From IMG/VR virus record IMGVR_UViG_2563366875_000005: DNA of 35,327 nucleotides. The stretch is one strand, 5' to 3'. Shown in pieces: positions 1,363-31,438 of the stretch. Below the pieces are notes generated by a model that saw only the letters and a program-made list of their open reading frames with translations, did no database searches and was not told where the DNA came from. Within the stretch, counting starts at the first letter, position 1. Each line of letters starts with the position of its first letter. This stretch comes from a virus. Its lineage: Duplodnaviria; Heunggongvirae; Uroviricota; Caudoviricetes. The position numbers were made by a program, and so were the translations under genes.

Positions 1363-1392
1363 TTAATTTCGATTATTTTTCCCGGATGGAAA

Positions 1393-1446
1393 ATTCTTAG
1401 AAACCGATCACATACAGCTGCATTTATTAAGGTTATCATCCGTTTC
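1393..1446 (+). promoter_or_regulatory. Putative cyaR promoter with CRP-like half-site
   Basis: TCACA half-site within ttagaaaccgatcaca (1396-1411), centred about 42 nt upstream of the predicted sRNA 5' end; -10-like tatcat at 1434-1439. Position-based inference only. Confidence 0.4.
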
Positions 1447-1533
1447 GCTGAAAAACATAACCCATAAAATGCTAGCTGTACCAGGAACCACCTCCTTAGC
1501 CTGTGTAATCTCCCTTACACGGGCTTATTTTTT
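1447..1533 (+). ncRNA. cyaR: CyaR (RyeE) Hfq-dependent sRNA
   Basis: gctgaaaaacataacccataaaatgctagctgtaccaggaaccacctccttagcctgtgtaatctcccttacacgggcttatttttt matches my recollection of E. coli CyaR, including the CCUCCUU seed-like stretch and a terminator hairpin plus U-run; it lies immediately downstream of yegQ as in K-12. Confidence 0.8.
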
Positions 1534-1534
1534 A
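1507..1534. repeat. Prophage att core, left copy (28-bp direct repeat)
   Basis: aatctcccttacacgggcttatttttta is repeated exactly at 34825-34852; its reverse complement matches the P2 att core AAAAAATAAGCCCGTGTAAGGGAGATT as I recall it. Overlaps the cyaR 3' end. Confidence 0.8.
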
Positions 1535-1597
1535 CGCGTAATTCAATGAAATAAAAGGATTTATTTCTGGTCACGTCCACACATTGACCACATCGAC

Positions 1598-1621
1598 AAA
1601 AAAGCCCCTCGACTGAGGGGC
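1598..1621 (-). terminator. Rho-independent terminator downstream of ogr
   Basis: Hairpin gcccctc-gact-gaggggc (1604-1621) preceded on the plus strand by an A-run (1598-1603), which is a U-run after the hairpin on the minus strand. Confidence 0.55.
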
Positions 1622-1634
1622 TTTCTGTTTGTAA

Positions 1635-1853
1635 TTACATCCACATAATTTGCTGCCCTGACGGTAACGGGTGCGGCCTTACGGCGTGGACTTCTCCCGG
1701 CTTTACGATGTATCGCTGTACCGACTCATAAGTGATGAACGTGGCGCTGCAATTCACGTTCTGGCACTGGTGATAACGCTCTTTTGTCGTGTCAGTGATA
1801 TAGCGACTTGTACGCGCATGTGCGGCATGCTGGCATAAAGGACAATGAAACAT
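1635..1853 (-). CDS. ogr: Late-gene transcriptional activator Ogr (zinc finger)
   Basis: 72-aa product MFHCPLCQHAAHARTSRYITDTTKERYHQCQNVNCSATF with a Cys4 zinc-finger pattern; ATG at 1853 (plus cat 1851-1853) with GAGG RBS. The track ORF extends to 1916, but the internal start gives the P2 Ogr length. Confidence 0.85.
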   Translation of the reverse strand: MFHCPLCQHAAHARTSRYITDTTKERYHQCQNVNCSATFITYESVQRYIVKPGEVHAVRPHPLPSGQQIMWM

Positions 1854-1934
1854 CGCGAGCACCTCTTCCGGTTTTGTTGATGGTGCCATTTTAGTTAATT
1901 TACCCTTATAAAACAAACAGATAAATAAATCGCA

Positions 1935-3098
1935 TCACTCATCATCTTCTGTTTCGTACTCCACATCAGAAAGCCTTACCTCAAGCTCCAAGGACGTCGT
2001 GAAGCCGCTATTATTGAGACAATGTGTCACCTTAGTGATGGTCCAGTCCTGCTCGTCTATGACGCGCTTAAAGCCTGACACTTTAACCGGTGTTTCCGTG
2101 TAAATATCTGCCCGACCAGTAGCCAGGCTGATGGAAAACTCCGCAACACCCCGTTGCAGTTTATCCCACTTCGCCTGAGCGGCGCGCATGGCCTGTGCTT
2201 TCGTGGCATATACCGTGGTCAGGGCAAAAACGTTGTCAGCCTCACCGGCCATGTATTCACCTTCGCGCGCTTCCGGTACTTTTGGCTCTTTCTTCTGCCT
2301 GACCGGTTTCGCTTTCGGGTGCTCCAGTGCGCGCAGGTGTTTCTCTTTCTTTTTGCGTTTCAGTTTTACCTTCTGCTTTTGCGGCTTCGGGTCTTTGGTG
2401 TGTAACCACTTTGCCGTAACGCCGGTATAGGCTCCACGGTCAGCAATCGCAAAATGATGACGGTCGCCGTCGCTGCGGGTGATGGTGACCTGCGGGATTT
2501 TTTTACCGCTGGCCGTCACCCCCTGCCCCGCTTTGAGAAACAACAGTTTTCCCATTTTTACCGACACCTCACCGCCGTTGCGTTCTGCAAGACGGGTCAG
2601 GAATTTCGCATCAGACTCCTGCGACTGGTCGATGTGCGGGATTTTAATTCCGGCCAGTGACGGAGCGACACTGGCCTCCAGCTTGTTACGGGAGGCTATC
2701 GCCTCAACAATCGCACCGAGTGTGGTGTCATGCCAGGAGCCTTCCCGGCGGGAATTGAGCGTCCCGCGAAAATCTGCACTCCGGGCGCGGATGGTGACCA
2801 CATCCGGCGCGCCCCGGTGTTCAACCTCATCAACGGTAAATTTCCCTTTGCATACCAGGGCAAAACCTTTCCAGCCGATATACACCGTCAGGACAGCGCC
2901 ACGAACCGGCAGCCCGACCTGCCCGTCGGCATCGTTCAGTTCAATATCAAGCTGGTCAGCCTCAAAGCCCCGGTTATCCGTCAGGGTCATGCTCATCAGA
3001 TGGTCGCTGATATTGCCGGTAATATCCCTGCTGTCGAGCATCAGCATGTAATCCGGCGTCAGCGTACTGCCTGCATCAAATGTCAGCGCATCCAACAT
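1935..3098 (-). CDS. D: P2 gpD-like late tail protein D
   Basis: 387 aa, the same length and position as P2 D (after U, before ogr); ATGA-type overlap with the U stop at 3098. Confidence 0.85.
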   Translation of the reverse strand: MLDALTFDAGSTLTPDYMLMLDSRDITGNISDHLMSMTLTDNRGFEADQLDIELNDADGQVGLPVRGAVLTVYIGWKGFALVCKGKFTVDEVEHRGAPDVVTIRARSADFRGTLNSRREGSWHDTTLGAIVEAIASRNKLEASVAPSLAGIKIPHIDQSQESDAKFLTRLAERNGGEVSVKMGKLLFLKAGQGVTASGKKIPQVTITRSDGDRHHFAIADRGAYTGVTAKWLHTKDPKPQKQKVKLKRKKKEKHLRALEHPKAKPVRQKKEPKVPEAREGEYMAGEADNVFALTTVYATKAQAMRAAQAKWDKLQRGVAEFSISLATGRADIYTETPVKVSGFKRVIDEQDWTITKVTHCLNNSGFTTSLELEVRLSDVEYETEDDE

Positions 3099-3577
3099 TA
3101 TCCCGCCCCCGTCATACCCGTGAATCTGGTCGCCATACTGCCAGCCTTACCGATGAGCGATTCCGCCTGTTTACCGATATCGCCATACAGCGCGGACAGT
3201 GATTCATCAACGCGGGTGAGCGACAGCGTAAAATCAATTTTTCGGGGTGTGCCGTCTGCAAAGAAAATACTCCCTGTTTCACTCACCTTGCTGATGACAT
3301 ACATGCCGTAAATCATGCCAGTGCCATCCAGCAACGGCCACGCCCGGCCTTCCTCAGCCATCAGCCTGAGCGTGGTCATCGTCAGCTTTCCGCCGGTCAG
3401 TTCGGGATAAAGCACACCGGCAAGCGTGATGTTTTCCTCACCCACACCGAGAAATTGAAAGGCATCCCGTTTGCCGATACGGGAATTTGACGGCCAGCGA
3501 TAATCTGATTCACGCTGCATGGTCTGGTGTGGCAGCGTCTGGCGCATAAAAACAAACATACCTAACGCGAGCATCAT
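3098..3577 (-). CDS. U: Tail protein U (gpU-like)
   Basis: 159 aa; position between T and D as in P2. Confidence 0.85.
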   Translation of the reverse strand: MMLALGMFVFMRQTLPHQTMQRESDYRWPSNSRIGKRDAFQFLGVGEENITLAGVLYPELTGGKLTMTTLRLMAEEGRAWPLLDGTGMIYGMYVISKVSETGSIFFADGTPRKIDFTLSLTRVDESLSALYGDIGKQAESLIGKAGSMATRFTGMTGAG

Positions 3578-3591
3578 TTTTCGTCACCTCC

Positions 3592-6039
3592 TTAACCATC
3601 ATGCATCATGCTGGCACGGGCGCGCGCACGTTTATCCCGCTCGTATTTTTCGAGCGCATCCTGTAACTGGCGGTCAAGCTGTGTCCCCGGCGCAGTACCA
3701 CCCGTCAGGCTGATGTGATATTCGTTTTTACTCTGGTCCACATAAGAGCGGCCAGCCGGTGCCGTAACCGGCTGATAAGCCTGATAACCTGCATAAGAGC
3801 TGGTCGCCGGAATATAACCACCGGTGCCATACGTGGCGGCATGAGTTCTGGCGGCGGTCTGGTCAAGTGTGTCTGACTCTTTGTTGATAACCCCGAGTTT
3901 TTCCAGTACCCAGTCAATACCGCTGCGCAGTTTGTTGAACGCATTAAGCGGCAGCATCAGCGCGTCAGCCAGTGCCTGCCCGAACATGACCCCCGTGTCA
4001 CGGCAACGGTTCAGGGTGTCCTGTGTGGCTTTAACCGGGGCAATCAGATTTTTAAACCACTGCCACGCGGCCTGTAACTTTTCGCCCAGCCAGTCAAACA
4101 CCGGTTTCAGTGGCGTGAACAGCTCCCTCACCGGCGCAAATGCCGCTTTCAGCCCTTCAACCACACCGCCAAAGAATGCGCTGACAGGCTCCCAGTATTT
4201 ACGGATAAGCAACGCCCCGGCGACAATGGCGGCCACCACAGCCACAACCGGCCAGCTAATCGCCCCGATGGCCGTCATAACGGCACTGCCAACCGTCGTG
4301 AAGATTGCACCCATTGCGCCTGCTGCCGCGATGATGGCATTAATGCCGGTGATAACCGGCCAGGCTACGAGGCCAATGGCACCGATGACACCAGTCAGCG
4401 CCAGTGCACCACCGACAATGATGCCGATGGTTGACGCCAGTGATTTGTTTTTCTGTATCCAGCCGTCGAGTTTTAACACATACTTTGTGGCCGTCTGCGT
4501 GAGCTTACGCAGTGCGCCTTCCTGCTGGTCAAACAGGTCAGTCCCCACCGCCTCATAAGCGGACTGAAACTCCTTAAAGTCACCGCCTAGGTTGTCCTGC
4601 ATGATATTTACCAACTCTGCGGTCTTTCCGTCTGAGGCTTTAAACGCAGCGGTCAGTTTGTCCAGCTTTCCGGTTGAGGCGGCAGTCATCAGCACGGCGG
4701 CGGCTGAGCTGGCCTCCTCCCCGAAAATGGTTTTCATGTATTCAGCCTGCTGGGCAGTACCGAGCCGGTTTTTCTCAAAACTGGCCTGCATTTCTTTCAG
4801 AATGGTAAATACTGGTCGAGTATTCCCTTTACTGTCTGAGGTTTTCACGCCAAGCTCTTTCAGTGCATCCCATGCTTTTCCCGTCGGTGCCTGCAGGCGA
4901 CTTAACACGGCACGGCTTCCCGTCCCCGCCATTGAACCGGTAATTTTTGCATCATGCAGCGCCCCGACCATTGCGGCGGTTTCTTCAATGCTGACACCAG
5001 CATTTTTTGCCACAGGTGCGGCATAGGTCAGCGCATCGCTCATGCCATCAAAATCGGCGGCGGTTTTGTTCATCGTCATGGAGAGAACATCCCCGATATG
5101 AGCGACCTTATCGTTTGAAAGCTGAAAGGCGGATTTCATCCCCATCAGCAGGGCGGCGTTTTCTTCCATCGTGCGACGGTTCGCCAGCGCCATATTCAGC
5201 GTGACCGGCGTTGCCGCCTGAATGGCATCAACATCCCCACCGGCTTTCGCAATAATAATCTGCGCACCGGCTGCATCATCTGCCGAGGCTGCGGTATTGT
5301 CGCCGAGCTGGCGCGCCTGCTTGCGTAGTGCAGCCATTTCGGCGGAGTCTTTTGCCACACCGAGCACAGCCTGCAATTCTGAGTTTTTCTGCGCAAACTC
5401 ATAACCGGGCATCAGCAGCTTAACTCCGGCCATCGTTCCCGCAGCAGCAATCCCCACACCGGCAGCGCCCACTGAGGCCATATTTCCGGCCAGTTCCTTT
5501 CCGGCCTGATAACGCTGTTTTACTGCGTTAAGTTTTGCCTGTTGTGCACTGACACGCGCCAGCGCGTCACGCTGACGGTTAAGCTGTGCGGTGGTTTCAC
5601 TGATACGGTTTTTCAGTCCCTGCTCATCATGTGCAAGATTGCGGGTATTAATTCCCACAGCGGCCAGTTCCCGCTGCTGGCGTTTAATGGAATCTGTCAG
5701 GCGGTTATATTTCGCCTGTAAGTCCTCCGCCGCACGCTTTGCGGATTCCAGCACTTTCGCCTGAGCACGGGTCGGACGTTCAGTGTTTTTAAACTGTGTG
5801 GCAAGGGCTTCGGCTTCCTGCCGTGCCTTTTCAAGTGCATGACCAGTCACGGCAAGCTGTGCGCTGGTCTTGCGAAATCCCTCAATACGGGATGCGTGAC
5901 CGTTCAGCTCGCGCAGTGATTTTTGTGTTTCCCGGATATCCCCCGACAGCGACTTACTCGCTGTGCGGATGGATTTAAACGGGCGGGATGCCTGGTCAAC
6001 AGCCCTGAGCAATACCTGTAATTTTACATTGTTACTCAT
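3592..6039 (-). CDS. T: Tail tape measure protein (gpT)
   Basis: 815 aa; long coiled-coil N-terminal half, then Gly/Ala-rich hydrophobic segments typical of tape measure proteins; follows E/E'. Confidence 0.9.
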   Translation of the reverse strand: MSNNVKLQVLLRAVDQASRPFKSIRTASKSLSGDIRETQKSLRELNGHASRIEGFRKTSAQLAVTGHALEKARQEAEALATQFKNTERPTRAQAKVLESAKRAAEDLQAKYNRLTDSIKRQQRELAAVGINTRNLAHDEQGLKNRISETTAQLNRQRDALARVSAQQAKLNAVKQRYQAGKELAGNMASVGAAGVGIAAAGTMAGVKLLMPGYEFAQKNSELQAVLGVAKDSAEMAALRKQARQLGDNTAASADDAAGAQIIIAKAGGDVDAIQAATPVTLNMALANRRTMEENAALLMGMKSAFQLSNDKVAHIGDVLSMTMNKTAADFDGMSDALTYAAPVAKNAGVSIEETAAMVGALHDAKITGSMAGTGSRAVLSRLQAPTGKAWDALKELGVKTSDSKGNTRPVFTILKEMQASFEKNRLGTAQQAEYMKTIFGEEASSAAAVLMTAASTGKLDKLTAAFKASDGKTAELVNIMQDNLGGDFKEFQSAYEAVGTDLFDQQEGALRKLTQTATKYVLKLDGWIQKNKSLASTIGIIVGGALALTGVIGAIGLVAWPVITGINAIIAAAGAMGAIFTTVGSAVMTAIGAISWPVVAVVAAIVAGALLIRKYWEPVSAFFGGVVEGLKAAFAPVRELFTPLKPVFDWLGEKLQAAWQWFKNLIAPVKATQDTLNRCRDTGVMFGQALADALMLPLNAFNKLRSGIDWVLEKLGVINKESDTLDQTAARTHAATYGTGGYIPATSSYAGYQAYQPVTAPAGRSYVDQSKNEYHISLTGGTAPGTQLDRQLQDALEKYERDKRARARASMMHDG

Positions 6040-6459
6040 TCGTGTTTCCGCTTCGCCGGAGCGCCTTTTCGCGCCATGTGATGAGTTCGGTCAGACTCAT
6101 GGGATACAGTTCTGATGGCGGCCAGTGAAATATCACTGCCACATCCGCCATCAGGTCATCGACCGACAGATTTTTCGGAAACGTCACTGCACCGAGTTCG
6201 GCAACAAAAAACCGACCACCTTACCGGCCAGCGCCACAAGGTCAGGCAGTTCCAGCGCGGCGACTTCCTGCTCGGTCAGCATCGGTGCCGTCATGCGCGG
6301 CAGCACTTTAATCAGTGCATCGACTTCGGAGTTCGCGACTGCAGCCAGACTGACACCGCGCAGCGTCCCGGCATTGGGTTTCATCAGCGTGACCTGTTCG
6401 ATAACCTGCTCACCACGTTTGACCGGATTGTCCAGGGTAATGACGTTTTCTTTGTTCAT
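6032..6459 (-). CDS. E': Tail assembly chaperone E+E' (-1 programmed frameshift product)
   Basis: Slippery heptamer TTTTTTG on the minus strand (plus 6205-6211) within codons GGT TTT TTG near the E 3' end. I translated the -1 frame by hand: it continues VAELGAVTFPKNLSVDDLMADV...REKALRRSGNTNE and stops at TAA (plus 6032-6034), overlapping the T start. This gives about 142 aa total, as for P2 E+E'. Confidence 0.65.
6184..6459 (-). CDS. E: Tail assembly chaperone E
   Basis: 91 aa, MNKENVITLDNPVKRGEQVIEQ...; position between FII and T. Confidence 0.85.
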   Translation of the reverse strand: MNKENVITLDNPVKRGEQVIEQVTLMKPNAGTLRGVSLAAVANSEVDALIKVLPRMTAPMLTEQEVAALELPDLVALAGKVVGFLLPNSVQ

Positions 6460-6515
6460 GGTTTTCTCACTTCTGAATCGGGGTTAACCGGTCAGCCAGG
6501 CTGACCGGATGAAAA

Positions 6516-7034
6516 TCACAGGCCGATATTGCGGCGGTGTTGCTCCAGCCGGTCGACGCCGTTCACCTTCTCAATCATGTTGATGGTGTCGATTTCGACC
6601 AACTCCTTACCGTCCATCGTCAGCCGGAAATAGGTGCAGACCACGGAGATTTTCGACTCGGTGTCTTCTCCCTGTTTGCCCTCGCCGGTGTCGATTTCTT
6701 TCTGACGTCCACGCATGACCACCTCGACGGCCACCGTTTCGCCGGTATCGTCGCGCTGGTAAGAGCCTGCAAAACGAATCGGTACGGCATCCACACCGGT
6801 TGCGGCGTAAAGCTCCCAGATAACCGAATCCGGGAAGCCACCGAGCGACCACTCCATTGACAGCGCATCGTCATCAAGGCCGAGGTCTACCGGTGCGCTG
6901 CCGTTCATCCCCGCACCGCGATAGTTTTCGAGCTTACGGGTCAGTTTTGGCAGCGTGACGGACTTCGCGACGCCCTGATAGCTGTAGCCGTTCAGAAAGA
7001 CGTTCATTAACTTGAGTTTGCGCGGCATTGCCAT
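6516..7034 (-). CDS. FII: Tail tube protein (gpFII)
   Basis: 172 aa, immediately downstream of the sheath gene. Confidence 0.9.
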   Translation of the reverse strand: MAMPRKLKLMNVFLNGYSYQGVAKSVTLPKLTRKLENYRGAGMNGSAPVDLGLDDDALSMEWSLGGFPDSVIWELYAATGVDAVPIRFAGSYQRDDTGETVAVEVVMRGRQKEIDTGEGKQGEDTESKISVVCTYFRLTMDGKELVEIDTINMIEKVNGVDRLEQHRRNIGL

Positions 7035-7046
7035 CGGTCAGGCTCC

Positions 7047-8237
7047 TTAATTGCTGTTAACCGAGGTGACCAGATTTGCCAGGTATTTATCAGTAATACG
7101 CTGGCGCAGGGTCAGGTTTTCAAGAGGAGGCACCGGGGTATAGTCGTAGTCGATATACAGTTTTCCGGCCTTGAGGGTTTCCGCATCGTTGGATTCTTCG
7201 CTGAACCAGCAGGTCGCATCCACGATATAGCCGTTTGTTTTCAGCTCACGGAATTTGGCATTGATGCCGTCAACGATGTCGCGAATCAGCGTTGCGGTGA
7301 TGGGCTTGTCCACCGCCCACATGTGCGCCTCAGCCATCGTGTCGGCCAGCACCTGCGCGGTGCGGGTGTAGTTTTCAAAGAGGAACAGCGGGTCATCAGA
7401 GCAGGTACGGTTACCCCAGAAGCGAAAACCGTCGCGGCGAATCAGCGTTGTGACGCCTGACTCGTTAAGCAGGTCAGCATCGGTGCCGGACTCCTGCAAA
7501 TCCCAGAATACAGAGGCGCTGATGCCGGTAACACCGTTCACCCCGACATTGGACAGCGTTTTATGCCAGCCCTGCTCCTGGTCGATTTTAGCGCGCAGCC
7601 CCAGCGCACGGGCGGTGGCATACGCGGTGGCGGTGGTACTGGTGACCGTATCCCATGCGAGGAAATCCGGCCAGATGACCATCAGCTCACGCTGGCTGAA
7701 ATTCTGACGGTAGGCTTTCACCTCGGAAATGGTTTTACAGCCCCATGCGCTGATATACCCGAAAGCGCGCAACTTCTGACAGACTGATGCCAGTGCAACA
7801 GCCACCTCTTTGGTGTCCAGTCCCGGCACGCCGAGAATACGCGGTTTAACACCGGTTACCGACTCCGCCGCCAGCAGGGCTTTCAGTCCGGTGTACTGAC
7901 CGTTTTCGTCGGTGGTGCCGATGATATTGGAAACGGTCTGCGCGAGTTTCGTTTCCTCGTCGTCGCCGGTGCCGTCTTCCACACGCACGACAACGGTGAC
8001 CGGTTTTGACTGGTCGGCGATGGCCTGCAACGATGCCGCCAGCGTGCCTTTTTTACCGGCCTTTGCAATTGCGCTCTGCACATTGGTAATCAGCACCGGT
8101 TTATTGAGGGGGAAGGTTTCCGCATCCGCATCGCTGGCCGTGCAGACCATGCCGACAATGGCAGTGGATACGGTGGAAATGACGCGGGTGCCGTCGTTAA
8201 TCTCCAGCACCTGCACGCCGTGATGATAGTCACTCAT
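7047..8237 (-). CDS. FI: Contractile tail sheath protein (gpFI)
   Basis: 396 aa, MSDYHHGVQVLEINDGTRVIS..., the length and N-terminus of P2 FI from memory. Confidence 0.9.
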   Translation of the reverse strand: MSDYHHGVQVLEINDGTRVISTVSTAIVGMVCTASDADAETFPLNKPVLITNVQSAIAKAGKKGTLAASLQAIADQSKPVTVVVRVEDGTGDDEETKLAQTVSNIIGTTDENGQYTGLKALLAAESVTGVKPRILGVPGLDTKEVAVALASVCQKLRAFGYISAWGCKTISEVKAYRQNFSQRELMVIWPDFLAWDTVTSTTATAYATARALGLRAKIDQEQGWHKTLSNVGVNGVTGISASVFWDLQESGTDADLLNESGVTTLIRRDGFRFWGNRTCSDDPLFLFENYTRTAQVLADTMAEAHMWAVDKPITATLIRDIVDGINAKFRELKTNGYIVDATCWFSEESNDAETLKAGKLYIDYDYTPVPPLENLTLRQRITDKYLANLVTSVNSN

Positions 8238-8330
8238 CCGTTTAACTCCGTGGTTAATGGGTGCAACTATTTTCTGTTGTGCAGAGCATGAGACGCTATT
8301 TGACCTGGCTGGTCAGTGGATGAAACAACA

Positions 8331-8360
8331 GATAAAGAAAAGGCGGGCAATCAGCCCGCC
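8331..8360 (-). terminator. Terminator-like hairpin at the backbone/cargo boundary
   Basis: ggcgggc-aatca-gcccgcc (8342-8360) preceded on the plus strand by aaagaaaa, giving a T-rich tract after the hairpin on the minus strand. Confidence 0.45.
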
Positions 8361-8595
8361 TGTCCTGACTTGCATTCACTCATTTTCCAACTGACGGTTT
8401 ACATAGCCCAAACGTTATCAAATCTGACAGCCTGCTTTGAGCGAACAGCAGAATTTCACAACTGTCATCGCCATTGAGGATGCTCAGCTAACCTTTTACA
8501 TGTTAATCGACAGGGAGCACCTCAGCACCACATGCCACTTAACAGGTTTACTCATTGATTTTTATATGAAAAAACCTTGCTTTCAATAGCACGCC

Positions 8596-8623
8596 TTGAT
8601 TTCTATCGCTGTAATGTTAGAAT
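8596..8623 (+). promoter_or_regulatory. Putative sigma70 promoter for the cargo operon
   Basis: TTGATT (8596-8601), 16-bp spacer, TAGAAT (8618-8623), about 28 bp upstream of the ATG at 8651. By-eye match only. Confidence 0.3.
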
Positions 8624-8650
8624 GTAAAAAAACTCATTTATACAGCATTT

Positions 8651-9031
8651 ATGGATAATATATCTCTTGATTACTTCCCTGTTATAATATTGGTTTTAGC
8701 TTTTTTTATGAAAGTTTCTATAGGTAGAGGTTTTGCCTTAAGTAATTATGGAGTTGGTTTATTAGAACTACCTGTTGACCTATTTTTTGTTTCAATTTCA
8801 ATATTTGCCACAACTATTCTTACTCATTCCGATAATATCCAGCAAAAAATTCAAACCCTAATTATATATTTAATATTTACTGTAGTGTCAGCAATTCTTT
8901 GGCGTTTCAATGAGACCCTATTCTTATCACAAACAAAGAAAAGATGGTGGTGCGCTCTTTTGATCCCTGCAAACATAATAATTGCATTTTATTTCTTTAT
9001 GATCACAATTGATTTGGTGAAGCAACAATGA
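8651..9031 (+). CDS. Small multi-pass membrane protein (cargo gene 1)
   Basis: 126 aa with about four hydrophobic helices (YFPVIILVLAFFM, LPVDLFFVSISIFATTIL, IQTLIIYLIFTVVSAILW, WWCALLIPANIIIAFYFFMITIDLV); very AT-rich; stop overlaps the next start (ATGA at 9028-9031); no obvious Shine-Dalgarno. Confidence 0.7.
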   Translation: MDNISLDYFPVIILVLAFFMKVSIGRGFALSNYGVGLLELPVDLFFVSISIFATTILTHSDNIQQKIQTLIIYLIFTVVSAILWRFNETLFLSQTKKRWWCALLIPANIIIAFYFFMITIDLVKQQ

Positions 9032-9756
9032 ATATCATTCGAGAATTTACCTCTAATTTGAATGGCGAGTTTTTCGCAATTATGTTTGCTATATTTTCTT
9101 TATTGTGTGTAATAATATCTCTTTTATTACTCAAAAAAAGAGAGACCATTTACAATGAAAAACTAAATAGAATTGAACTTGATTTTATGCGTTCAAATTA
9201 TGAAAATAAGATTTATGAATTAAATGAAAAGTTAACTTTTGAAAAGAAAAGATGGTTAGATAATAATCATTTTTTCGCAAATATGCCTAATGACGATCGG
9301 AAGATAGGTGCAATCAATCAAGCGATCAATCCACATTTTTTTCTAGAGAACATGGGGTTAAACCCTGATGCATTGAACATTAAACCAAAGAGTGTATTTA
9401 TCCTCACTCCATTTAATGATAGGTATCTTAATGATTACAAAGCTATTGAACAGGCTTGTATCAACATTGGTATATCTGTTTCTCGTGGAGATGAAGAACG
9501 CATAAATGGTGATATCTTATCCTATATAGTTTCTCAAATTTGTTCATCTCAATTGATTATCGCTAATATTTCTGGTAGAAATCCTAATGTTTTCTATGAA
9601 CTAGGTATTGCCCAGGCATTAGGAAAGCCGGCCATAATAGTCAGTAAAGGTGCAAAGGATATACCTTTCGACTTAAAAAATAGACAGGTTTTCATTTACG
9701 AGAGTTTATCTGATTTAACATCAAAAATCCAGAAAGCCGTTGTGAGTCTTCTTTAA
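9028..9756 (+). CDS. Membrane-anchored protein with C-terminal NDT/TIR-like (SLOG-fold) domain (cargo gene 2)
   Basis: 242 aa; N-terminal TM helix (FFAIMFAIFSLLCVIISLLLL) followed by KKRE; charged helical linker; the C-terminal ~120 aa carry VFILTPFND and LIIANISGRNPNVFYELGIAQALGKPAIIV, resembling the catalytic-Glu motif of nucleoside 2-deoxyribosyltransferase-like / TIR-like domains. The candidate Glu is E191 (codon 9598-9600). Confidence 0.75.
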   Translation: MNIIREFTSNLNGEFFAIMFAIFSLLCVIISLLLLKKRETIYNEKLNRIELDFMRSNYENKIYELNEKLTFEKKRWLDNNHFFANMPNDDRKIGAINQAINPHFFLENMGLNPDALNIKPKSVFILTPFNDRYLNDYKAIEQACINIGISVSRGDEERINGDILSYIVSQICSSQLIIANISGRNPNVFYELGIAQALGKPAIIVSKGAKDIPFDLKNRQVFIYESLSDLTSKIQKAVVSLL

Positions 9757-9885
9757 TTCATAGTTCTGTATTTCCCCTCAGGGCGGCAATGTCGTCCTGA
9801 GTAGTCCAGCGAAAGAATTGTCAGCATTGTCTCATATTAGTCATATACCATTATTACTGCTATTTAGTTTCTGAACCACTTATAA

Positions 9886-9903
9886 CTAGAAATATATTTC
9901 TAG
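9886..9903. repeat. 18-bp perfect palindrome ctagaaatatatttctag
   Basis: Read directly; it is its own reverse complement. Lies inside the 724-bp ORF-free gap between cargo genes. Confidence 0.85.
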
Positions 9904-10231
9904 CATCCCATTACCCATCGCATACCATTATTAAAATTCTATAAGTCCTTTATCCGAAGGGCGGCTTTATATATACAGACGCTTTGCATGGATACAGACT
10001 CGCGAAGAATTCCTTAGTTATATGTCCGTTGCAGTTCAAGTATAATCGTGAACCACCGTCTACGTAGATAGCCATAATCTCCCCTTCAAAAGATACCAGC
10101 AACGAGTTAGTCGAAAAAGATATCTCAAATCGGCGGATAAGGGGCTCTCACCAGACTGAATGAGCCTCCTAAAAAACCGGGGATGATAGTAACTATTATG
10201 TAGGCTTATCCGTAGCGATTAATTTGCTACT

Positions 10232-10259
10232 AATGCCCGCTGCTGGCACAGAGCAGACC
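10232..10259. repeat. GC-rich hairpin element, copy 1
   Basis: aatgcccgctgctggcacagagcagacc shares the core ctggcacagagc with copy 3. Confidence 0.6.
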
Positions 10260-10273
10260 ATCGGACTGAACTG

Positions 10274-10304
10274 AATGTCCGCTCTGAGCGAGGAGCGGAA
10301 GTCC
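10274..10304. repeat. GC-rich hairpin element, copy 2
   Basis: aatgtccgctctgagcgaggagcggaagtcc; 7-bp stem tccgctc/gagcgga; shares aatgtccgct with copy 3. Confidence 0.6.
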
Positions 10305-10417
10305 ATAATCATTCCCACCTTTGGCAAGAGCAATACTAATTTCTGATGGGATAGGATAATTAATAGACAACTGGCTAGTCGGAAATGCAGAGTTTTAACT
10401 TATATCGCATGTATACA

Positions 10418-10445
10418 TTGACCATTTTTAAATCGATAGTAACAT
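10418..10445 (+). promoter_or_regulatory. Putative sigma70 promoter for cargo gene 3
   Basis: TTGACC (10418-10423), 16-bp spacer, TAACAT (10440-10445); AGGAA RBS at 10471-10475 before the ATG at 10481. Confidence 0.35.
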
Positions 10446-10480
10446 CTTTCAAGACAATTGAGTATATATAAGGAATAAGA

Positions 10481-11239
10481 ATGAGCTTGCACCCTGAAAT
10501 ACTATTTCATTTTACAGATAAAGACGGGTTGTTAAATATACTTGAACACACATTTAAAATATCATACGCGAGAGAAAGGATACAAGGTAAGAATGAAATA
10601 AGAGAATTTGGTATTCCTATGGTTTCTTTTTGTGATATCAAACTTTCCGATCTAAAGGATCATATTGATAAGTATAGGGATTATGGCATTGGGTTAAATA
10701 AAGCATGGGCAAATTCAAAAGGACTCAATCCAGTTTGGTATGTAAGTAAAAATAGCGAATTCCCCGATGCATTTACCTCTGCATTAAACTCTTTATATCG
10801 AAAAATGGATTCTATATTGGACAATAAAGAGTATAAAGAATTTAATGAAACTTACATGAAATTCATGGATATATATAGATATCTTAAAAATTACGAGGGG
10901 GAACTAAAAAGATCCAAAGAAGTAATTAAAAACTATAGATTTGCGGATGAAAAAGAATGGAGATTCGTTCCAAGTATCAGCGAAGAAGATATATTACCAT
11001 TCGTACCTATTACTAAAATAAAAACAAAAAACCAGAAAGCGGAATATAATAATCAGATCAGTCATCTTCGCTTGAGCTTTGAGCCAAAAGATATAAAGTA
11101 TATCATTGTCAAAGATGAACATGATATTATTGATATTGTTAATCATCTTAAAATGGTTAAAAGTAGATTCTCTTCTCTTGATATAACACAACTACAAACG
11201 CGCATATTGACTACTGAGCAAATAAAAACTGACATGTGA
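10481..11239 (+). CDS. Hypothetical soluble cargo protein (cargo gene 3), possible Abi-like single-gene defence or exclusion protein
   Basis: 252 aa, no TM segments, Lys/Glu/Tyr/Asn-rich, very AT-rich with its own promoter and RBS; N-terminus MSLHPEILFHFTDKDGLLNILEH. I could not place it in a family from sequence alone. Confidence 0.75.
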   Translation: MSLHPEILFHFTDKDGLLNILEHTFKISYARERIQGKNEIREFGIPMVSFCDIKLSDLKDHIDKYRDYGIGLNKAWANSKGLNPVWYVSKNSEFPDAFTSALNSLYRKMDSILDNKEYKEFNETYMKFMDIYRYLKNYEGELKRSKEVIKNYRFADEKEWRFVPSISEEDILPFVPITKIKTKNQKAEYNNQISHLRLSFEPKDIKYIIVKDEHDIIDIVNHLKMVKSRFSSLDITQLQTRILTTEQIKTDM

Positions 11240-11285
11240 TGATATTATTAACTATTCAAAGGTTAATAATACAACCAGCGGTATC

Positions 11286-11316
11286 AATGTCCGCTTCTGG
11301 CACAGAGCGGACTGTC
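11286..11316. repeat. GC-rich hairpin element, copy 3
   Basis: aatgtccgcttctggcacagagcggactgtc; 7-bp stem gtccgct/agcggac with a 10-nt loop; 47 bp after the gene 3 stop and 58 bp before the G stop on the other strand. Confidence 0.6.
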
Positions 11317-11373: not shown

Positions 11374-11901
11374 TTATTGCGGCATTTCCGGCCATTCGGG
11401 ATTTGCAGGATCCACACGACTGACCAGAACGCTGTAGCGTTCCCATGCTTCCAGTCGGCTGCGTTCCTCATCCGTCGCCATATTCAGCCTGACAGCGCGT
11501 TCCAGCGGCAAAATCACGGATTCAGCTTCGGAAAGTAAAGCTGCCTTTTGTGATTCTGCCAGTTGCTGCTGTTCATCTGCCGTATAAATCCGCTTAATCA
11601 CGGCACCATCCTTAAACATCCATTTACCTGAGTCATCAGCACGTCGGTTGGCGGTAATATCAGGAACCTCGACAACGCTAAAACCTTCAGGGTTAAGCGT
11701 TGAAACATCTCTGGTGATGCCGACAATTATATTATTCTCGTCGTAAACAATCTTTATCGTGTCTTCCTGAAAATTACTTACTTCCTCATACCAGTTTTTT
11801 CCGTCTTCAGACCATAACCAGATAACATCAAAATTTTTTGTCAGTTGATATTGGGCAACAGTTTTGGGATTACCCGCAGTAATATTTTTTAAATGCTGCA
11901 T
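11374..11901 (-). CDS. G: Tail fiber assembly chaperone (gpG)
   Basis: 175 aa, immediately downstream of the tail fiber gene; N-terminus [20 protein letters not shown]. Confidence 0.85.
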
Positions 11902-22729: not shown

Positions 22730-24502
22730 ATGACCATCACCACAGACACCACTCTTTTACACGACCCGCGTCGTCAGGCGGCGCTGCTGTACTGGCAGGG
22801 GTTTTCCGTGCCGCAGATTGCCGCCATGTTGCAGATGAAACGCCCGACGGTGCAGAGCTGGAAACAGCGCGACGGCTGGGACAGCGTTGCCCCCATCAGC
22901 CGTGTCGAAATGAGTCTGGAAGCGCGGCTGACCCAGCTCATCATCAAACCGCAGAAAACCGGCGGTGACTTCAAGGAAATTGACCTGCTGGGACGCCAGA
23001 TTGAACGACTGGCACGGGTCAACCGCTACAGCCAGACCGGCAACGAGGCAGACCTTAATCCGAACGTCGCTAACCGCAACAAAGGCGGGCGGCGCAAACC
23101 GAAAAAGAATTTTTTCAGTGACGAGGCCATCGAAAAGCTGGAGCAGATTTTCTTTGAGCAGTCTTTCGACTATCAGTTGCACTGGTATCGTGCCGGGCTT
23201 GAGCACCGCATCCGCGATATCCTGAAATCCCGCCAGATTGGCGCAACGTTTTATTTTTCCCGCGAGGCGCTGCTGCGCGCCCTGAAAACCGGCCATAACC
23301 AGATTTTTCTGTCAGCCAGTAAAACGCAGGCGTATGTGTTCCGCGAATACATCATCGCCTTTGCCCGTCTGGTTGACGTTGACCTGACCGGTGACCCGAT
23401 TGTCCTGGGCAATAACGGCGCAAAACTGATTTTTCTCGGCACCAACTCCAACACCGCGCAGAGCCATAACGGCGACCTGTACGTCGATGAGATTTTCTGG
23501 ATCCCGAATTTTCAGGTACTGCGTAAGGTGGCATCAGGTATGGCCTCACAGAGTCACCTGCGCTCGACCTATTTCTCCACCCCGTCCACGCTGGCGCATG
23601 ACGCCTACCCGTTCTGGTCGGGTGAACTGTTCAACCGGGGACGCGCCAGCGCCGCCGAACGCGTGGAAATCGACGTCAGTCATAACGCCCTTGCCGGAGG
23701 TCTTCTCTGTGCGGACGGCCAGTGGCGGCAGATTGTCACCATTGAGGACGCCCTGAAAGGTGGCTGCACACTGTTCGACATTGAGCAGCTCAAACGTGAA
23801 AACAGCGCCGACGATTTTAAAAACCTGTTCATGTGTGAATTTGTTGACGACAAGGCGTCGGTGTTCCCGTTCGAGGAGCTGCAACGCTGCATGGTCGACA
23901 CGCTGGAAGAATGGGAAGACTATGCGCCGTTTGCCGCCAATCCGTTCGGCTCCCGTCCGGTATGGATTGGTTACGACCCGTCACACCGTGGCGACAGCGC
24001 CGGATGCGTGGTACTGGCACCGCCGGTGGTGGCCGGTGGCAAATTCAGAATACTTGAGCGTCACCAGTGGAAAGGCATGGACTTTGCCACCCAGGCGGAA
24101 TCCATCCGCAAACTCACCGAAAAATACAACGTCGAATACATCGGCATTGATGCCACCGGCCTCGGTGTCGGCGTGTTCCAGCTCGTGCGCTCGTTCTATC
24201 CCGCCGCGCGCGATATCCGCTACACGCCGGAAATGAAAACCGCAATGGTGCTCAAGGCAAAAGACGTTATCCGCCGTGGCTGTCTGGAATATGACGTCAG
24301 CGCCACCGACATCACCAGCTCGTTTATGGCTATCCGCAAGACCATGACCAGCAGCGGACGCAGCGCCACCTATGAGGCCAGCCGCAGCGAGGAAGCCAGC
24401 CACGCCGACCTCGCCTGGGCGACCATGCACGCCCTGTTAAATGAGCCACTCACCGCCGGTATCAGTACCCCGCTGACATCCACCATTCTGGAGTTTTACT
24501 GA
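22730..24502 (+). CDS. P: Terminase large (ATPase) subunit gpP
   Basis: 590 aa from the ATG at 22730 (MTITTDTTLLHDPRRQAALLYWQG) with GAGGT RBS; the track start at 22700 is a TTG. Confidence 0.9.
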   Translation: MTITTDTTLLHDPRRQAALLYWQGFSVPQIAAMLQMKRPTVQSWKQRDGWDSVAPISRVEMSLEARLTQLIIKPQKTGGDFKEIDLLGRQIERLARVNRYSQTGNEADLNPNVANRNKGGRRKPKKNFFSDEAIEKLEQIFFEQSFDYQLHWYRAGLEHRIRDILKSRQIGATFYFSREALLRALKTGHNQIFLSASKTQAYVFREYIIAFARLVDVDLTGDPIVLGNNGAKLIFLGTNSNTAQSHNGDLYVDEIFWIPNFQVLRKVASGMASQSHLRSTYFSTPSTLAHDAYPFWSGELFNRGRASAAERVEIDVSHNALAGGLLCADGQWRQIVTIEDALKGGCTLFDIEQLKRENSADDFKNLFMCEFVDDKASVFPFEELQRCMVDTLEEWEDYAPFAANPFGSRPVWIGYDPSHRGDSAGCVVLAPPVVAGGKFRILERHQWKGMDFATQAESIRKLTEKYNVEYIGIDATGLGVGVFQLVRSFYPAARDIRYTPEMKTAMVLKAKDVIRRGCLEYDVSATDITSSFMAIRKTMTSSGRSATYEASRSEEASHADLAWATMHALLNEPLTAGISTPLTSTILEFY

Positions 24503-25536
24503 TGAGCAAGAAAAAAGGGAAAACACCGCAACCTGCGGCAAAAAAAATGACCGCCAGCGCCCCGAAAATGGAGGCATTCACCTTTGGTGAGCCGGTGCCG
24601 GTACTCGACCGCCGTGACATTCTGGATTACGTCGAGTGCATCAGTAACGGCAGATGGTATGAGCCACCGGTCAGCTTTACCGGTCTGGCAAAAAGCCTGC
24701 GTGCTGCCGTGCATCACAGCTCACCGATTTACGTCAAACGCAATATTCTGGCTTCAACGTTTATCCCGCATCCGTGGCTTTCCCAGCAGGATTTCAGCCG
24801 CTTTGTGCTGGATTTTCTGGTTTTCGGTAATGCGTTTCTGGAAAAGCGTTACAGCACCACCGGTAAGGTCATCAGACTGGAAACCTCACCGGCAAAATAT
24901 ACCCGCCGTGGCGTGGAGGAGGATGTTTACTGGTGGGTGCCGTCCTTCAACGAGCCGACAGTCTTCGCGCCCGGCTCCGTGTTTCACCTGCTGGAGCCGG
25001 ATATCAATCAGGAGCTGTACGGCCTGCCGGAATATCTCAGCGCCCTTAACTCTGCCTGGCTGAATGAGTCGGCCACGCTGTTCCGCCGTAAGTATTACGA
25101 AAACGGCGCACATGCCGGATACATCATGTACGTCACTGATGCCGTGCAGGATCGCAACGATATCGAAGTGCTCCGCGAAAACATGGTGAAGTCGAAAGGC
25201 CGCAACAACTTTAAAAACCTGTTTCTCTACGCCCCGCAGGGAAAAGCCGACGGCATTAAAATTATCCCGCTCAGTGAAGTGGCGACGAAAGACGATTTTT
25301 TTAATATCAAAAAAGCCAGCGCCGCTGACCTGCTGGACGCGCACCGCATCCCCTTTCAGTTGATGGGCGGCAAGCCGGAGAACGTCGGGTCGCTGGGTGA
25401 TATTGAGAAAGTGGCAAAGGTCTTTGTCCGCAATGAGCTTATCCCGTTACAGGACAGGATTCGGGAAATAAACGGCTGGCTCGGTCAGGAGGTCATCCGC
25501 TTTAAAAACTACTCACTGGACACTGACAACGGCTGA
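24502..25536 (+). CDS. Q: Portal protein gpQ
   Basis: 344 aa; start overlaps the P stop. Confidence 0.9.
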   Translation: MSKKKGKTPQPAAKKMTASAPKMEAFTFGEPVPVLDRRDILDYVECISNGRWYEPPVSFTGLAKSLRAAVHHSSPIYVKRNILASTFIPHPWLSQQDFSRFVLDFLVFGNAFLEKRYSTTGKVIRLETSPAKYTRRGVEEDVYWWVPSFNEPTVFAPGSVFHLLEPDINQELYGLPEYLSALNSAWLNESATLFRRKYYENGAHAGYIMYVTDAVQDRNDIEVLRENMVKSKGRNNFKNLFLYAPQGKADGIKIIPLSEVATKDDFFNIKKASAADLLDAHRIPFQLMGGKPENVGSLGDIEKVAKVFVRNELIPLQDRIREINGWLGQEVIRFKNYSLDTDNG

Positions 25537-28800: not shown

Positions 28801-28888
28801 CGGCTGACCCCAGAAGAAAACTAACGTCTTTACCTTTCCGAATATCCAATACCAAAGACTTTACAAATTCAGTATAAGAATTAAACAT
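25853..28888 (-). CDS. Large SIR2-domain defence protein (DSR2-like defence-associated sirtuin)
   Basis: About 1011 aa from the ATG at 28888 (AGGGA RBS); N-terminal SIR2 motifs FLLGSAVS, ILTTNFD and VVHLHG, then about 700 aa of mostly helical sequence; very AT-rich. The track ORF starts at 28981, but the 31-residue extension looks non-native. Confidence 0.8.
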   Translation of the reverse strand: MFNSYTEFVKSLVLDIRKGKDVSFLLGSAVSCSPEGNGVPGVSGMNDILRQYMIDLDIYDGFESNIIGLSETDKYQKSFEYLLKVGDQDEVKEIMALAMNNARSGDKWLITKSLDDFSRLISETSIKVKCILTTNFDPLIEEALFRVNRNCNVHNLIVDQPIGSVTSYSGESIPVVHLHGVWDGDTMHTQTQLSSLRKKIELSIKNILDTSKLYVIGYAGWDDVFLQALRNIVHEFQPSYNVRWGFYKNSIDDVSKEHSRLIEIIQPALVNARFQGYVGVDCNTYFEDALAEISKKKQLSKFVVKKTGLQPITESIVISLRPYNLSVEPAHDIIRLVEQKKATDYLNNNNHFELVSGWGYGKAGFLYSFIHDEFYDFTCYYSDVNGLTESHDIEVKIKQDIGIDIATFISNNGLGKRILILDNIARLPPSTKAFFSEIAKLSSDLSSGVKVIFVSATCNGICSGIVELQPLSLDDIKEYIKVGTDITEIKREKLDRLYEITNGIPLKLDKVKEYYELMSFDEVLDAGNIVVSAEGTNTDIPHYISKQINEIRSDNRKLYSLLCIFSMLEYGEKLTNIRSYYSSYDFHFDDFAKLERYGLIYTITKDNYKILRISPVVSDFVKQGMDPNQRYELVKKSLGLCIGSDWMSGKVRVSPTVKMMLESPEFYPGNVHSAISSYFSLIDINHYDREVKSLIHVSIGYCIFLKSACYYKELVAFSRMLYSNISHLDILDKFRAAYFLATSLRMIDEVEQSVEFIEPLSDEFEAKEFCQKEYYFKMLDNIMMACSEYNDEKARKYAIKLKKIAPKSSSYYINAEVHLADELSHGKRVNKLISLEKKSRAAGYNTLANNISIKLHYLFSGSSFKYIDNAIKNEGGVYTKARALLVKYEELVRCGEFEKIDAEGVRELKAVYDYLFLQRLDELFNRCTDVLWQLMKAYRDVNGLYYLFKRGSVIWRVTSSYDKELEYAKELNEQQFDISGGGDDMKYLSIRLSFLALKVERDKCLIDAPTL

Positions 28889-29070
28889 TAAGCAATCCCT
28901 TTCGTTATATGACGAAACTACAAGCAGAGAATTTCTGATAATTTTTACATTATGAAACCAAAGCATCAACACATAATACAAAACAAAAGTAACTTATTGA
29001 TTTGTATATAATTTCCATTATAAGTCTACACGTAATGCTACAGGAGCATTTTGAAGACCACTCCCCGCTT

Positions 29071-31173
29071 TTATATAAAATCACCAATCATGAGTAAACA
29101 TGAATCTAGGGAGCGAGCTGTGTCTCGCAGATAATTTTGTGTCCTTAGACCGTGTTTTAGTGCACCTCTAAGCGCCCTCACGACCTCCGGGTCATTCCAT
29201 TCGATAACACCGTCATCAACCAGATTAAGCACTGCTGCGGCGTGCTCAGAAGGCGTGGGAGCCGGTAACGAAGTATCACCACCGGTGAGCTTTCCACAGT
29301 TATTGACAGGACTCCGAGGCGCGGCGATGCCGCTTTTTAAAGTCAAAGGCTCAACGACCGGCACTTTCGGAACAATGCGCCAGTCCGTCGTTCTAGTGAT
29401 ATGAATATGACGCGCGCCGAGATGCGGCGCGTAAATGCCGACCACTCTCTCGACTTCTTCCTCGTACTCGTTAACGTCATCCGACGGGCTACGGGCAACC
29501 CTGACAGTCTGACAATCGCGCGGGACATTTGCCCCACCCTGCGCGCTGATATACAACGCAAAATCACCACTGTCTGCGGCGGCGCGTGCAGCCTCGACGC
29601 GCTCGTCAAACTCATCAGCAATGCTGACGCCGCGAGGCAATTTGCGTAGTTCACGGTAAGCCCCCATTGTCGGCAGGCCAACCGTTTTAAATTGCGGAAT
29701 GCGCCACGTTGACGCCCATGCGGTAACAGCCGCGGCAGTATCTTTCAGCGGTCTGCCGGTATCGTTATCGAGCTGCCCATCCAGTGCATAGCCGTCGATA
29801 TTTTTTGAGATGTATTTCGCGATATACCCCGCAGCACCGCCCCGATTAAGATGTTTTGCCTGAAAACGGTTTCGCGCGGCTCCTCTTTCGTCGCCATCCT
29901 CTTTGAGCGCATAGCGACGCATGATTTCGATAATCTGGTTACGCTGGCGTGGATTACAAAAAAGCATCATATGCCAGTGCGGCGTTCCGTCGTGGTGTGG
30001 CTCGACGACTCGCAAACCGTAGACCTGTAAATCATTATCCTTGAATGCCGTGCGCATCAGGCTCCAGATACGGCAGAGATAACGCTGCGCATCCTTTGGA
30101 TTAAATGCCTCATCGTTCCAGCCGTGATTAAGCTGAACGGTTTTACTTTCGCCTTTTCCGACCTGACGTGTCGGGTGATACTTTGACGGCGCGGTCAGCG
30201 TGATAAACATCCCCACATCACCCTCTGCGGCGGCGTAACGCTCAATACCGGCAATGGTGTTCATCAGCTCCATCCGGCGAATTTCAGGATTAGAAATACT
30301 GCCCATCACCTTACTGATAAGGTCGATGCGCTCGCCGGTTTCCCTGTTTTCAAGGTCACACGATTTAAGAAATTCCAGATTTGCCTGGCGGCGCGCACGC
30401 ACATCACGAATGGCGTGTTTACTGGCATAAGGAGAACGGTCTTTATTGACCTCCCCGACAGCTATCAGTAACGCCTCATGCCAGCGCATACGCTGGCCTT
30501 TAAGCTGATGAGTCCACCACTCATCGTTAAACAGGCGGGCAATGGCAGAATATGCCTGCCTCGTGGTCATCTGTCCTTTACGGTATTTTTTCCAGTAGAG
30601 CGGGGAAATATTGAAAGCACGTGCAGCGCCAGCAACATGACCATACAGGTGAGCCTGCGCCTCATCCGTAAACAGCGATTCTTTTTCACCATGCGCATCA
30701 ACCCATGCATCGCAGAGTTCCTCATACATCATGAAAAGCTGCGATGAGATACGGGCGGCAAACTTTTTCAGCTCCTTGTCATTCATTCCCGGCAGGCGCG
30801 CATAGTGGTCACGCTCTGCCAGAAACAGCAACGACGCGTCGGTGTTCATTTCATGGCGCTGATTCACACGCTCAATGCGCGGCCATAAACGACGCTGAAA
30901 AGTAGATGTGAGGAAATAAAACCCGTGCACCGGGCTTTTATTGCGCCGGATGTAGTCATAGCGTGAAGTAAACAGCGAGCGCAAAAAGTAAGGCAGGCGA
31001 TTAATCGTGGATAAAACACCTTGCACCTGACGCATCTCGTCACGTGTAAGGGGTCTTTCGCGCCCGACAGCCTCGCGTGGCGCGTTCCATGCATAAGCAC
31101 CGGTAAACGTCTTACCGGTGCCTGCGGCAAATGCTGACGGAGGGACAAAACGCCCGGAGGCTTTAACGGCCAT
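29071..31173 (-). CDS. A: Rolling-circle replication initiator gpA (HUH nickase)
   Basis: HUH motif PHWHMMLF and active-site tyrosine motif GYIAKYISKNIDG; ATG at 31173 gives MAVKASGRFVPPSAFAAGTGK (700 aa); the track start at 31215 is a TTG. Confidence 0.85.
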   Translation of the reverse strand: MAVKASGRFVPPSAFAAGTGKTFTGAYAWNAPREAVGRERPLTRDEMRQVQGVLSTINRLPYFLRSLFTSRYDYIRRNKSPVHGFYFLTSTFQRRLWPRIERVNQRHEMNTDASLLFLAERDHYARLPGMNDKELKKFAARISSQLFMMYEELCDAWVDAHGEKESLFTDEAQAHLYGHVAGAARAFNISPLYWKKYRKGQMTTRQAYSAIARLFNDEWWTHQLKGQRMRWHEALLIAVGEVNKDRSPYASKHAIRDVRARRQANLEFLKSCDLENRETGERIDLISKVMGSISNPEIRRMELMNTIAGIERYAAAEGDVGMFITLTAPSKYHPTRQVGKGESKTVQLNHGWNDEAFNPKDAQRYLCRIWSLMRTAFKDNDLQVYGLRVVEPHHDGTPHWHMMLFCNPRQRNQIIEIMRRYALKEDGDERGAARNRFQAKHLNRGGAAGYIAKYISKNIDGYALDGQLDNDTGRPLKDTAAAVTAWASTWRIPQFKTVGLPTMGAYRELRKLPRGVSIADEFDERVEAARAAADSGDFALYISAQGGANVPRDCQTVRVARSPSDDVNEYEEEVERVVGIYAPHLGARHIHITRTTDWRIVPKVPVVEPLTLKSGIAAPRSPVNNCGKLTGGDTSLPAPTPSEHAAAVLNLVDDGVIEWNDPEVVRALRGALKHGLRTQNYLRDTARSLDSCLLMIGDFI

Positions 31174-31438
31174 ATGAGCCAAAAGCCTCTGAAAAACGCT
31201 TGCTGAGTTGCTCAACCTGCGCGTTTAAATCAGCAAAAGACTTTGCGCTTCCGGTCAGAATATCGTGATGCATCAGGCCGGAAACGAGCTGGCTTAATTT
31301 CGGGTAATAACCAACCACCGCCAGCCATTCCTGACCGGCGTTTTTACCGCTTTCCGCTCTCTTTTTCTCGTGGAGAATAAACTGAAAGCTGTCACTGGTA
31401 ACGACATAACGTTCGCCAATTTCAATACGAATACTCAT
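31163..31438 (-). CDS. P2-family early-operon small protein (91 aa)
   Basis: 91 aa upstream of A, with overlapping stop/start codons with its neighbours. Confidence 0.65.
   Translation of the reverse strand: MSIRIEIGERYVVTSDSFQFILHEKKRAESGKNAGQEWLAVVGYYPKLSQLVSGLMHHDILTGSAKSFADLNAQVEQLSKRFSEAFGSYGR

Follow-up and report, generated by a model that had tools for sequence, protein, structure and literature searches.

A solo AbiGi-family gene with a predicted DarT-like ADP-ribosyltransferase fold as a single-gene cargo cassette of a P2-like prophage

The window analysed here is the whole 35,327-nucleotide stretch of a Caudoviricetes record (IMGVR_UViG_2563366875_000005) and corresponds to an enterobacterial P2-like prophage. 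A low-GC island was found at approximately 8450-11290, flanked by a P2-type tail sheath gene (7047..8237, minus strand) and a tail-fibre assembly gene (11374..11901, minus strand). A first-pass annotation, made from the sequence alone, had placed the gene at 10481-11239 in the Z/fun hotspot. Pfam labels on a 98%-identical E. coli locus confirmed the location between the sheath and tail-fibre genes, which is the Z/fun position on the P2 map. The features on which the analysis relies are given below; L065, L066 and L067 designate three other P2-like prophages used for comparison.

8431..8452, no strand: left-type hairpin bounding the entire cargo island on the left, where homology to other P2-like prophages stops (repeat families and homology comparison)
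10236..10257, no strand: right-type hairpin at the end of the upstream (TM + TIR-like) cassette, making up with 10278-10299 the right-left junction of the two tandem units (repeat families and homology comparison)
10278..10299, no strand: left-type hairpin TCCGCT-CTGAGCGAGG-AGCGGA, left edge of the AbiGi cassette (repeat families D1/I1; type as at the left boundary in L066 and L067)
10418..10445, plus strand: sigma-70 promoter-like site TTGACC-16-TAACAT, 9/12, candidate own promoter (consensus scan)
10470..10474, plus strand: Shine-Dalgarno AAGGA, 6 nt 5' of the ATG (read from the sequence)
10481..11239, plus strand: CDS of 252 aa with an ATG start, solo AbiGi-family protein with a predicted ADP-ribosyltransferase-like (DarT-like) fold
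11290..11311, no strand: right-type hairpin TCCGCT-TCTGGCACAG-AGCGGA, right edge of the AbiGi cassette, where P2-like prophage homology resumes (repeat families; homology with L065, L066 and L067 from 11286-11290)

At this site, other P2-like prophages carried DUF4145, a 447-aa hypothetical protein or HNH cargo, and comparison with L065-L067 showed that homology to prophages with other cargo ended precisely at short hairpins. Two patterns could be distinguished, a left type (TCTGCT-TTGAGCGAnn-AGCAGA) and a right type (TCCGCT-nnTGGCACAG-AGCGGA). Single-cargo prophages displayed one hairpin of each type in two of three cases (L066 and L067), the pattern search in L065 returning the right type alone. 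With hairpins in the order left (8431), right (10236), left (10278), right (11290), the window holds a tandem of two complete hotspot units, the second of which contains only the AbiGi gene, and this prophage is a clean example of such a fusion. P2 fun(Z) and the other cargo of sheath/tail-fibre hotspots share with the AbiGi gene the same position and the AT-rich, moron-type character, but their proteins are unrelated to AbiGi, and here two cargo units are joined. The right-left junction (76 nt, 89.5% identity) also lies between a retron Eco8 system and an unrelated gene in a further E. coli genome; matches to the junction region were present in 349 of 5,426 E. coli genomes. Within the hotspot, these hairpins could serve as joints for recombination or as barriers to transcription. 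In a 2026 paper on P2/P4 hotspots, the main text mentions neither hairpins nor palindromes nor terminators, and calls the recombination process unresolved.

The gap of 724 bp to the upstream ORF (9757-10480), already reported in the first-pass annotation, can be accounted for by these boundaries: it comprises the 3' tail of the first cassette (9757-10231), the junction hairpins (10232-10299) and 181 bp upstream of the AbiGi gene. Nothing in it could be recognised as a decayed gene, and the hairpin junction alone matched other E. coli genomes; one match of 72% identity to the gap region, located upstream of an AAA ATPase and DUF4435 pair, was uninformative. On its late-gene strand, the island has just one strong intrinsic-terminator-like site, at 8341-8361 (minus strand; AGGCGGGC-TGATT-GCCCGCCT followed by a T run), to the left of both cassettes and just upstream of the sheath gene region. 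Given this position, it can be speculated that, in lytic growth, late transcripts from the tail-fibre assembly gene may cross the two cargo cassettes in the antisense direction.

The upstream cassette encodes a 126-aa protein with about four hydrophobic segments (8651-9031, plus strand), which overlaps by 4 nt a 242-aa protein (9028-9756, plus strand) with a single TM helix at its N-terminus and, at its C-terminus, a domain that is TIR-like or nucleoside-deoxyribosyltransferase-like. The latter matched the PADLOC 'Effector TIR' profile (5e-9) and PHROG 3634 (3e-22), its match to Pfam PF05014 being below cutoff. This organisation is reminiscent of the TIR + TM system of the P2-like phage AC1, which Rousset reportedly validated in 2022.

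The 252-aa ORF at 10481..11239 can be considered a real gene. When the 2.8-kb AT-rich island was shuffled 300 times, the longest stop-free run had a mean of 84 codons and a maximum of 144, so that an ORF of 252 codons lies far beyond chance, and hundreds of full-length homologs were also retrieved. The AT-rich composition and the lack of TM segments reported in the first-pass annotation were both verified: GC content was 0.306 (GC3 0.265) versus 0.546 for the phage genes to the left (window positions 1-8200), and the 19-residue Kyte-Doolittle mean peaked at 0.75. Its claim of own expression signals held for the ribosome binding site, AAGGA being present, but less so for the promoter. The promoter-like site at 10418-10445 does exist, but it constitutes weak evidence, since such sites were no more common in the AT-rich region (13 found) than expected from shuffled sequence (14.6). 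An Rfam scan of the cargo island returned no RNA element.

Profile searches clearly assigned the 252-aa protein to the AbiGi family, with 109.4 bits against a cutoff of 22.4 for Pfam PF10899 (E 2.8e-31) and an E-value of 1.4e-47 for the PADLOC AbiGi profile, residues 6-251 covering positions 18-259 of 260. The protein also matched PHROG 13416, to which PHROG assigns no function (E 2.4e-112). The first-pass annotation had been unable to name a family by eye and had proposed such a search; its guess of a protein of Abi type proved right, and no housekeeping or phage structural family was matched. Against the NCBIfam equivalog for lactococcal AbiGI (NF042957), the score of 51.2 bits fell far below the cutoff of 300, indicating a member of the AbiGi family and not an ortholog of lactococcal AbiGI; BLASTP against the annotated lactococcal abiGI product gave 27% identity over 230 residues (E 2e-17). 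Close relatives are labelled 'abortive infection system antitoxin AbiGi family protein' at NCBI.

Conserved features of the window protein include His10 (in LFHFT), Glu32, Pro46-Met47..Phe50-Cys51-Asp52, Tyr65, Lys74, Tyr87, Lys136, Asp156-Glu157-x-Glu159-Trp160-Arg161 and Asp251. Among 108 mutually diverse representatives, residues F25, E32, F50, Y65, W76, Y87, K136, E157, E159, R161 and D251 were invariant, while H10, T12, P46, M47, C51 and D52 were conserved in at least 90%. The lactococcal AbiGi of system AbiG (plasmid pCI750; PF10899, NF042957) is homologous over essentially the whole length at the 27% identity level, likewise resides on a mobile element, and shares E32, PM..FCD, H61, Y65, K74, Y87, K136, DE-x-EWR and D251 with the window protein. 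Differences concern the carrier, a lactococcal plasmid for AbiG versus a P2-like prophage here, and the partner gene AbiGii, which is absent here. They also concern the first motif, in which His10 of the solo clade (LFHFT) is replaced by Asn in lactococcal AbiGI (LFNFM), a segment that the annotated Enterococcus protein lacks. The ExE and PM..FCD motifs were kept in the window protein and in both paired AbiGi (Lactococcus, L071 2800-3681; Enterococcus, L073 2968-3699). On this sequence basis, the motif-I His may separate catalytic solo forms from partner-dependent ones, a lead and not a result since just two paired sequences were compared. AbiG has been known since 1996 and, to our knowledge, a mechanism is still lacking.

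Genomic neighbourhoods were compared by clustering all ORFs within 3.5 kb of AbiGi homologs in 55 loci, of which 50 came from reference genomes spanning many phyla and five from elsewhere. The AbiGi homolog itself was the only family present in more than four loci, and no family was seen more than three times among the 90 immediate neighbours scanned with Pfam and PADLOC. These neighbours included type I RM methylases, HNH proteins, ResIII/UvrD helicases, TIR effectors, PDC-S35 and mad2, a set typical of a defence island. AbiGii was found beside none of the 55 homologs; in the plasmid loci of Lactococcus and Enterococcus used as positive controls, it starts 2-3 bp downstream of AbiGi. In the window, 134 bp separate the AbiGi stop codon from the convergent tail-fibre assembly gene; a decayed AbiGii at this place was considered and rejected, as this interval leaves no room for it. 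The two-gene AbiG organisation, with AbiGii directly downstream in one operon, is thus not that of 10481..11239, and annotation rules built on it would not report this single-gene candidate as a complete system. In Vibrio parahaemolyticus, the homolog (L009 6001-6762) was the sole gene between consecutive attC-like repeats (5844-5974 and 6766-~6906). The stand-alone character proposed in the first-pass annotation, independent of the upstream operon, is shown by the gene's own pair of boundary hairpins, by the lack of any conserved neighbour in the 55 loci and by this integron cassette, purifying selection on copies carried by different elements (see below) being a further line: the gene is a self-contained single-gene cassette without its usual AbiGii partner.

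The database name would make AbiGi an antitoxin whose toxin is encoded elsewhere. This name is the sole support for such a function, which we rank last and regard as extremely improbable. Neither a conserved partner nor an adjacent toxin gene was found in the 55 loci, and the predicted enzyme-like fold with its invariant ExE (see below) is atypical for an antitoxin. Moreover, lactococcal abiGi and abiGii have each been found non-toxic in E. coli (PMC3985639), so that the term 'antitoxin' lacks an experimental basis, and AbiG has not been shown to be a toxin-antitoxin pair.

Another explanation is that AbiGi needs a partner and acts as a sensor or adaptor, possibly with a catalytically dead ART-like domain, the partner being either an AbiGii-like protein encoded at an unlinked site or the neighbouring cassette upstream (TM + TIR-like). 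The sole experimentally characterised AbiGi does act in a two-gene system, the TM/TIR-like pair accompanies the gene in all near-identical E. coli copies retrieved, and TIR-domain neighbours were observed at two further loci. However, no partner was conserved over the 55 loci and their many phyla, relatives with 71-85% identity reside in other elements without the TM/TIR pair, and the Vibrio copy is a single-gene cassette. In addition, the solo clade retains the motif-I His that lactococcal AbiGI lacks. The separate hairpin-bounded units argue for independent acquisition of the two cargoes and make a functional link to the upstream pair unlikely. Dependence on a partner seems improbable on the whole.

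A word-indexed search retrieved 786 relatives. The best showed 99% (E. coli), 83% (Phytobacter) and 82% (Yersinia) identity and were followed by a broad plateau at about 50% identity covering Vibrio, Paraburkholderia, Flavobacterium, Spirosoma and Arcobacteraceae. An exhaustive profile search yielded 3,585 clusters at 50% identity with E <= 1e-3, including 900 with E <= 1e-30, and nearly all were 240-260 aa in length and matched end to end. The solo clade, with its more than 3,500 clusters, extends over Proteobacteria, Bacteroidota and others. The cargo was absent from all 5,426 complete E. coli genomes searched by megablast, in which the hotspot flanks alone matched, and a tblastn search of 50,697 deposited phage genomes detected no AbiGi protein; AbiGi cargo does occur in draft and metagenomic assemblies. 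Sequence comparison placed the gene under purifying selection, with dN/dS values of 0.10-0.18 among copies on a P2-like prophage, a CP4-57-type island, an ICE-like region and a P4-type island.

A solo homolog with 40% identity was common on IncF-type plasmids, being present on 46 E. coli plasmids. On plasmid pSD_88 of Salmonella Dublin (L072 2956-3777), the homolog lies between psiB/parB/DUF905 leading-region genes, encoded on the opposite strand, and the Avs4 defence gene. The proximity of such homologs to the psiB/parB leading region of many IncF plasmids could suggest that AbiGi serves the mobile element otherwise than by defence, as a plasmid establishment factor or as an ADP-ribosyltransferase devoted to anti-defence or host takeover; phage ARTs that reprogram the host, such as Alt, ModA and ModB of T4, are well known. 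Such a role appears distinctly unlikely. The pSD_88 gene is on the strand opposite to psiB and parB and adjoins Avs4, the prophage gene is divergent from the late genes, and many copies are chromosomal, outside phages, beside RM and other defence genes. The absence of homologs from the deposited phage genomes also speaks against it, as does the location, P2 hotspots being well documented as sites that store defence genes (PMC9122126). In P4 hotspots, 11 systems were rated incomplete by DefenseFinder or PADLOC, and 8 of them still gave protection (PMC13586616).

Structure prediction, also proposed in the first-pass annotation, resulted in a confident AlphaFold2 model (59-sequence alignment; mean pLDDT 90.5, pTM 0.85). 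Foldseek searches of the PDB ranked three Thermus DarT entries on top (E 0.05-0.17, probability 0.75-0.51), and phage DarT came third in the viral library; the closest structures were transferases acting on nucleic acids (DarT, Tpt1). PDB searches using only sequence, with the protein or the family profile, returned nothing meaningful. Comparison with a DarT profile by hhalign gave short, collinear, non-significant matches, this profile being poor (three sequences, from chains with an engineered Glu-to-Ala change). A first segment placed AbiGi 8-24 on DarT 11-27, so that His10 falls on DarT His13, and a second one placed AbiGi 199-225 on DarT 166-192, which form the strand and helix after the strand of catalytic Glu160. 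The succession of His, aromatic residue and ExE is the kind of pattern that defines ART active sites, and these residues may share one NAD+ pocket. An ART core closest to DarT is thus moderately supported by the model, with insertions consisting of a helical hairpin (~94-132) and a loop (~165-197), and with a short conserved C-terminal tail. A link between AbiGi and the ART fold had already been published: a survey of ARTs counts AbiGi (PF10899) as a known ART-like family and reports significant similarity of DUF2971 to both AbiGi and DarT (bioRxiv 10.1101/2024.07.30.605764), and a genome paper presented profile-profile evidence for a novel ART family including DUF4433 (DarT) and AbiGi (PMC6192313). 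A 2026 review of lactococcal Abi systems found no significant PDB match for AbiGi or AbiGii (PMC13064643).

[quoted passage not shown] AbiGi could be an NAD+ glycohydrolase which, once activated, would deplete NAD+ like TIR or SIR2 effectors and thereby abort infection. The fold and motif evidence is identical for both activities, and TIR-like and SIR2 cargo are found in the same prophage; the nearest structures are nonetheless nucleic-acid transferases. The present data do not discriminate hydrolysis from transfer, and we consider hydrolysis as the main activity to be unlikely.

Despite the similarity in fold, the window protein differs from DarT (DUF4433), the ssDNA thymidine ADP-ribosyltransferase toxin of DarTG, in several respects. 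Sequence identity is just 10-14%, with a profile link that is not significant, an ExE motif takes the place of the single catalytic Glu, and AbiGi adds the two insertions and the C-terminal tail. The DarG-type macrodomain antitoxin, adjacent in DarTG, is absent beside the window gene: a DarG macrodomain gene was found neither in the window island nor among the 90 scanned neighbours. Another related system is Aristaios, a lactococcal single-gene DUF2971 protein with a predicted ART fold that is a validated antiphage system (PMC11381338). Like the window gene it combines a single-gene organisation, an ART-like fold and an ExE motif, and in its case an abortive-type phenotype has been validated; it differs in Pfam family (PF11185) and size (316 aa). 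In a Paraburkholderia-like contig (L012), a 486-aa protein with a faint DUF2971 match (6862-8322) is encoded 99 bp downstream of an AbiGi homolog. This DUF2971-like gene follows an HNH_2 gene, near type II/Eco57I-like methylases, so that two ART-like genes stand side by side in one defence islet. Such direct succession in one locus indicates that AbiGi and DUF2971 are distinct proteins.

Taken together, the predicted fold, the conserved motifs and the solitary organisation lead us to prefer, tentatively and a little short of an even call, the interpretation that solo AbiGi is itself the effector, an ART-type one-gene anti-phage enzyme and not an antitoxin. In the lysogen, AbiGi would be made from the strand that does not encode the late tail genes, and kept in an inactive or harmless state. 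Upon infection by another phage, it would use NAD+ to modify a target (nucleic acid or protein) by ADP-ribosylation, or would hydrolyse NAD+; either activity would block phage gene expression or replication, resulting in abortive infection or exclusion. By analogy with the two-gene AbiG system, a structural protein of the phage could be the trigger. Catalysis, target, trigger and anti-phage phenotype are what we infer for the solo form, and a literature search for experiments on solo AbiGi returned none. Defensive cargo is expected in this hotspot; what is new is the occurrence of AbiGi without AbiGii, as a solo, antitoxin-less variant forming a cassette of a P2-like prophage, for which a defence role is a plausible candidate.

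A wider proposal can be put forward for the family, albeit a doubtful one. The solo clade would consist of antitoxin-less, DarT-like ADP-ribosyltransferases of nucleic acids or proteins, acting as autoinhibited one-gene effectors triggered by a phage structural protein. The paired AbiGi of Firmicutes, devoid of the motif-I His, would be a degenerate sensor handing over to AbiGii. If this is true, the 'antitoxin' annotation is wrong for the whole AbiGi family. A wrong label on this large family is in any case probable, and some 3,600 protein clusters may be concerned. Compact, widespread and conserved, solo AbiGi offers a simple handle on AbiGi action, with a single gene, E. coli as the host and a P2 prophage as the setting.

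Another low-GC cargo gene was observed at 25853-28981 (minus strand, GC ~0.31). Its 1,042-aa product has a SIR2-like domain, matching Pfam SIR2_2 (2.6e-7) and PADLOC SIR2-type profiles (down to 1e-15), and the gene is flanked by ORFs of 344 aa (24502..25536, plus strand) and 714 aa (29071..31215, minus strand). From their positions on the P2 map, we take these to be the portal gene Q and the replication gene A, respectively, in which case the site would be a hotspot of old/tin type. The TIR-like, SIR2-like and AbiGi genes represent three NAD-related candidate defences in one prophage.
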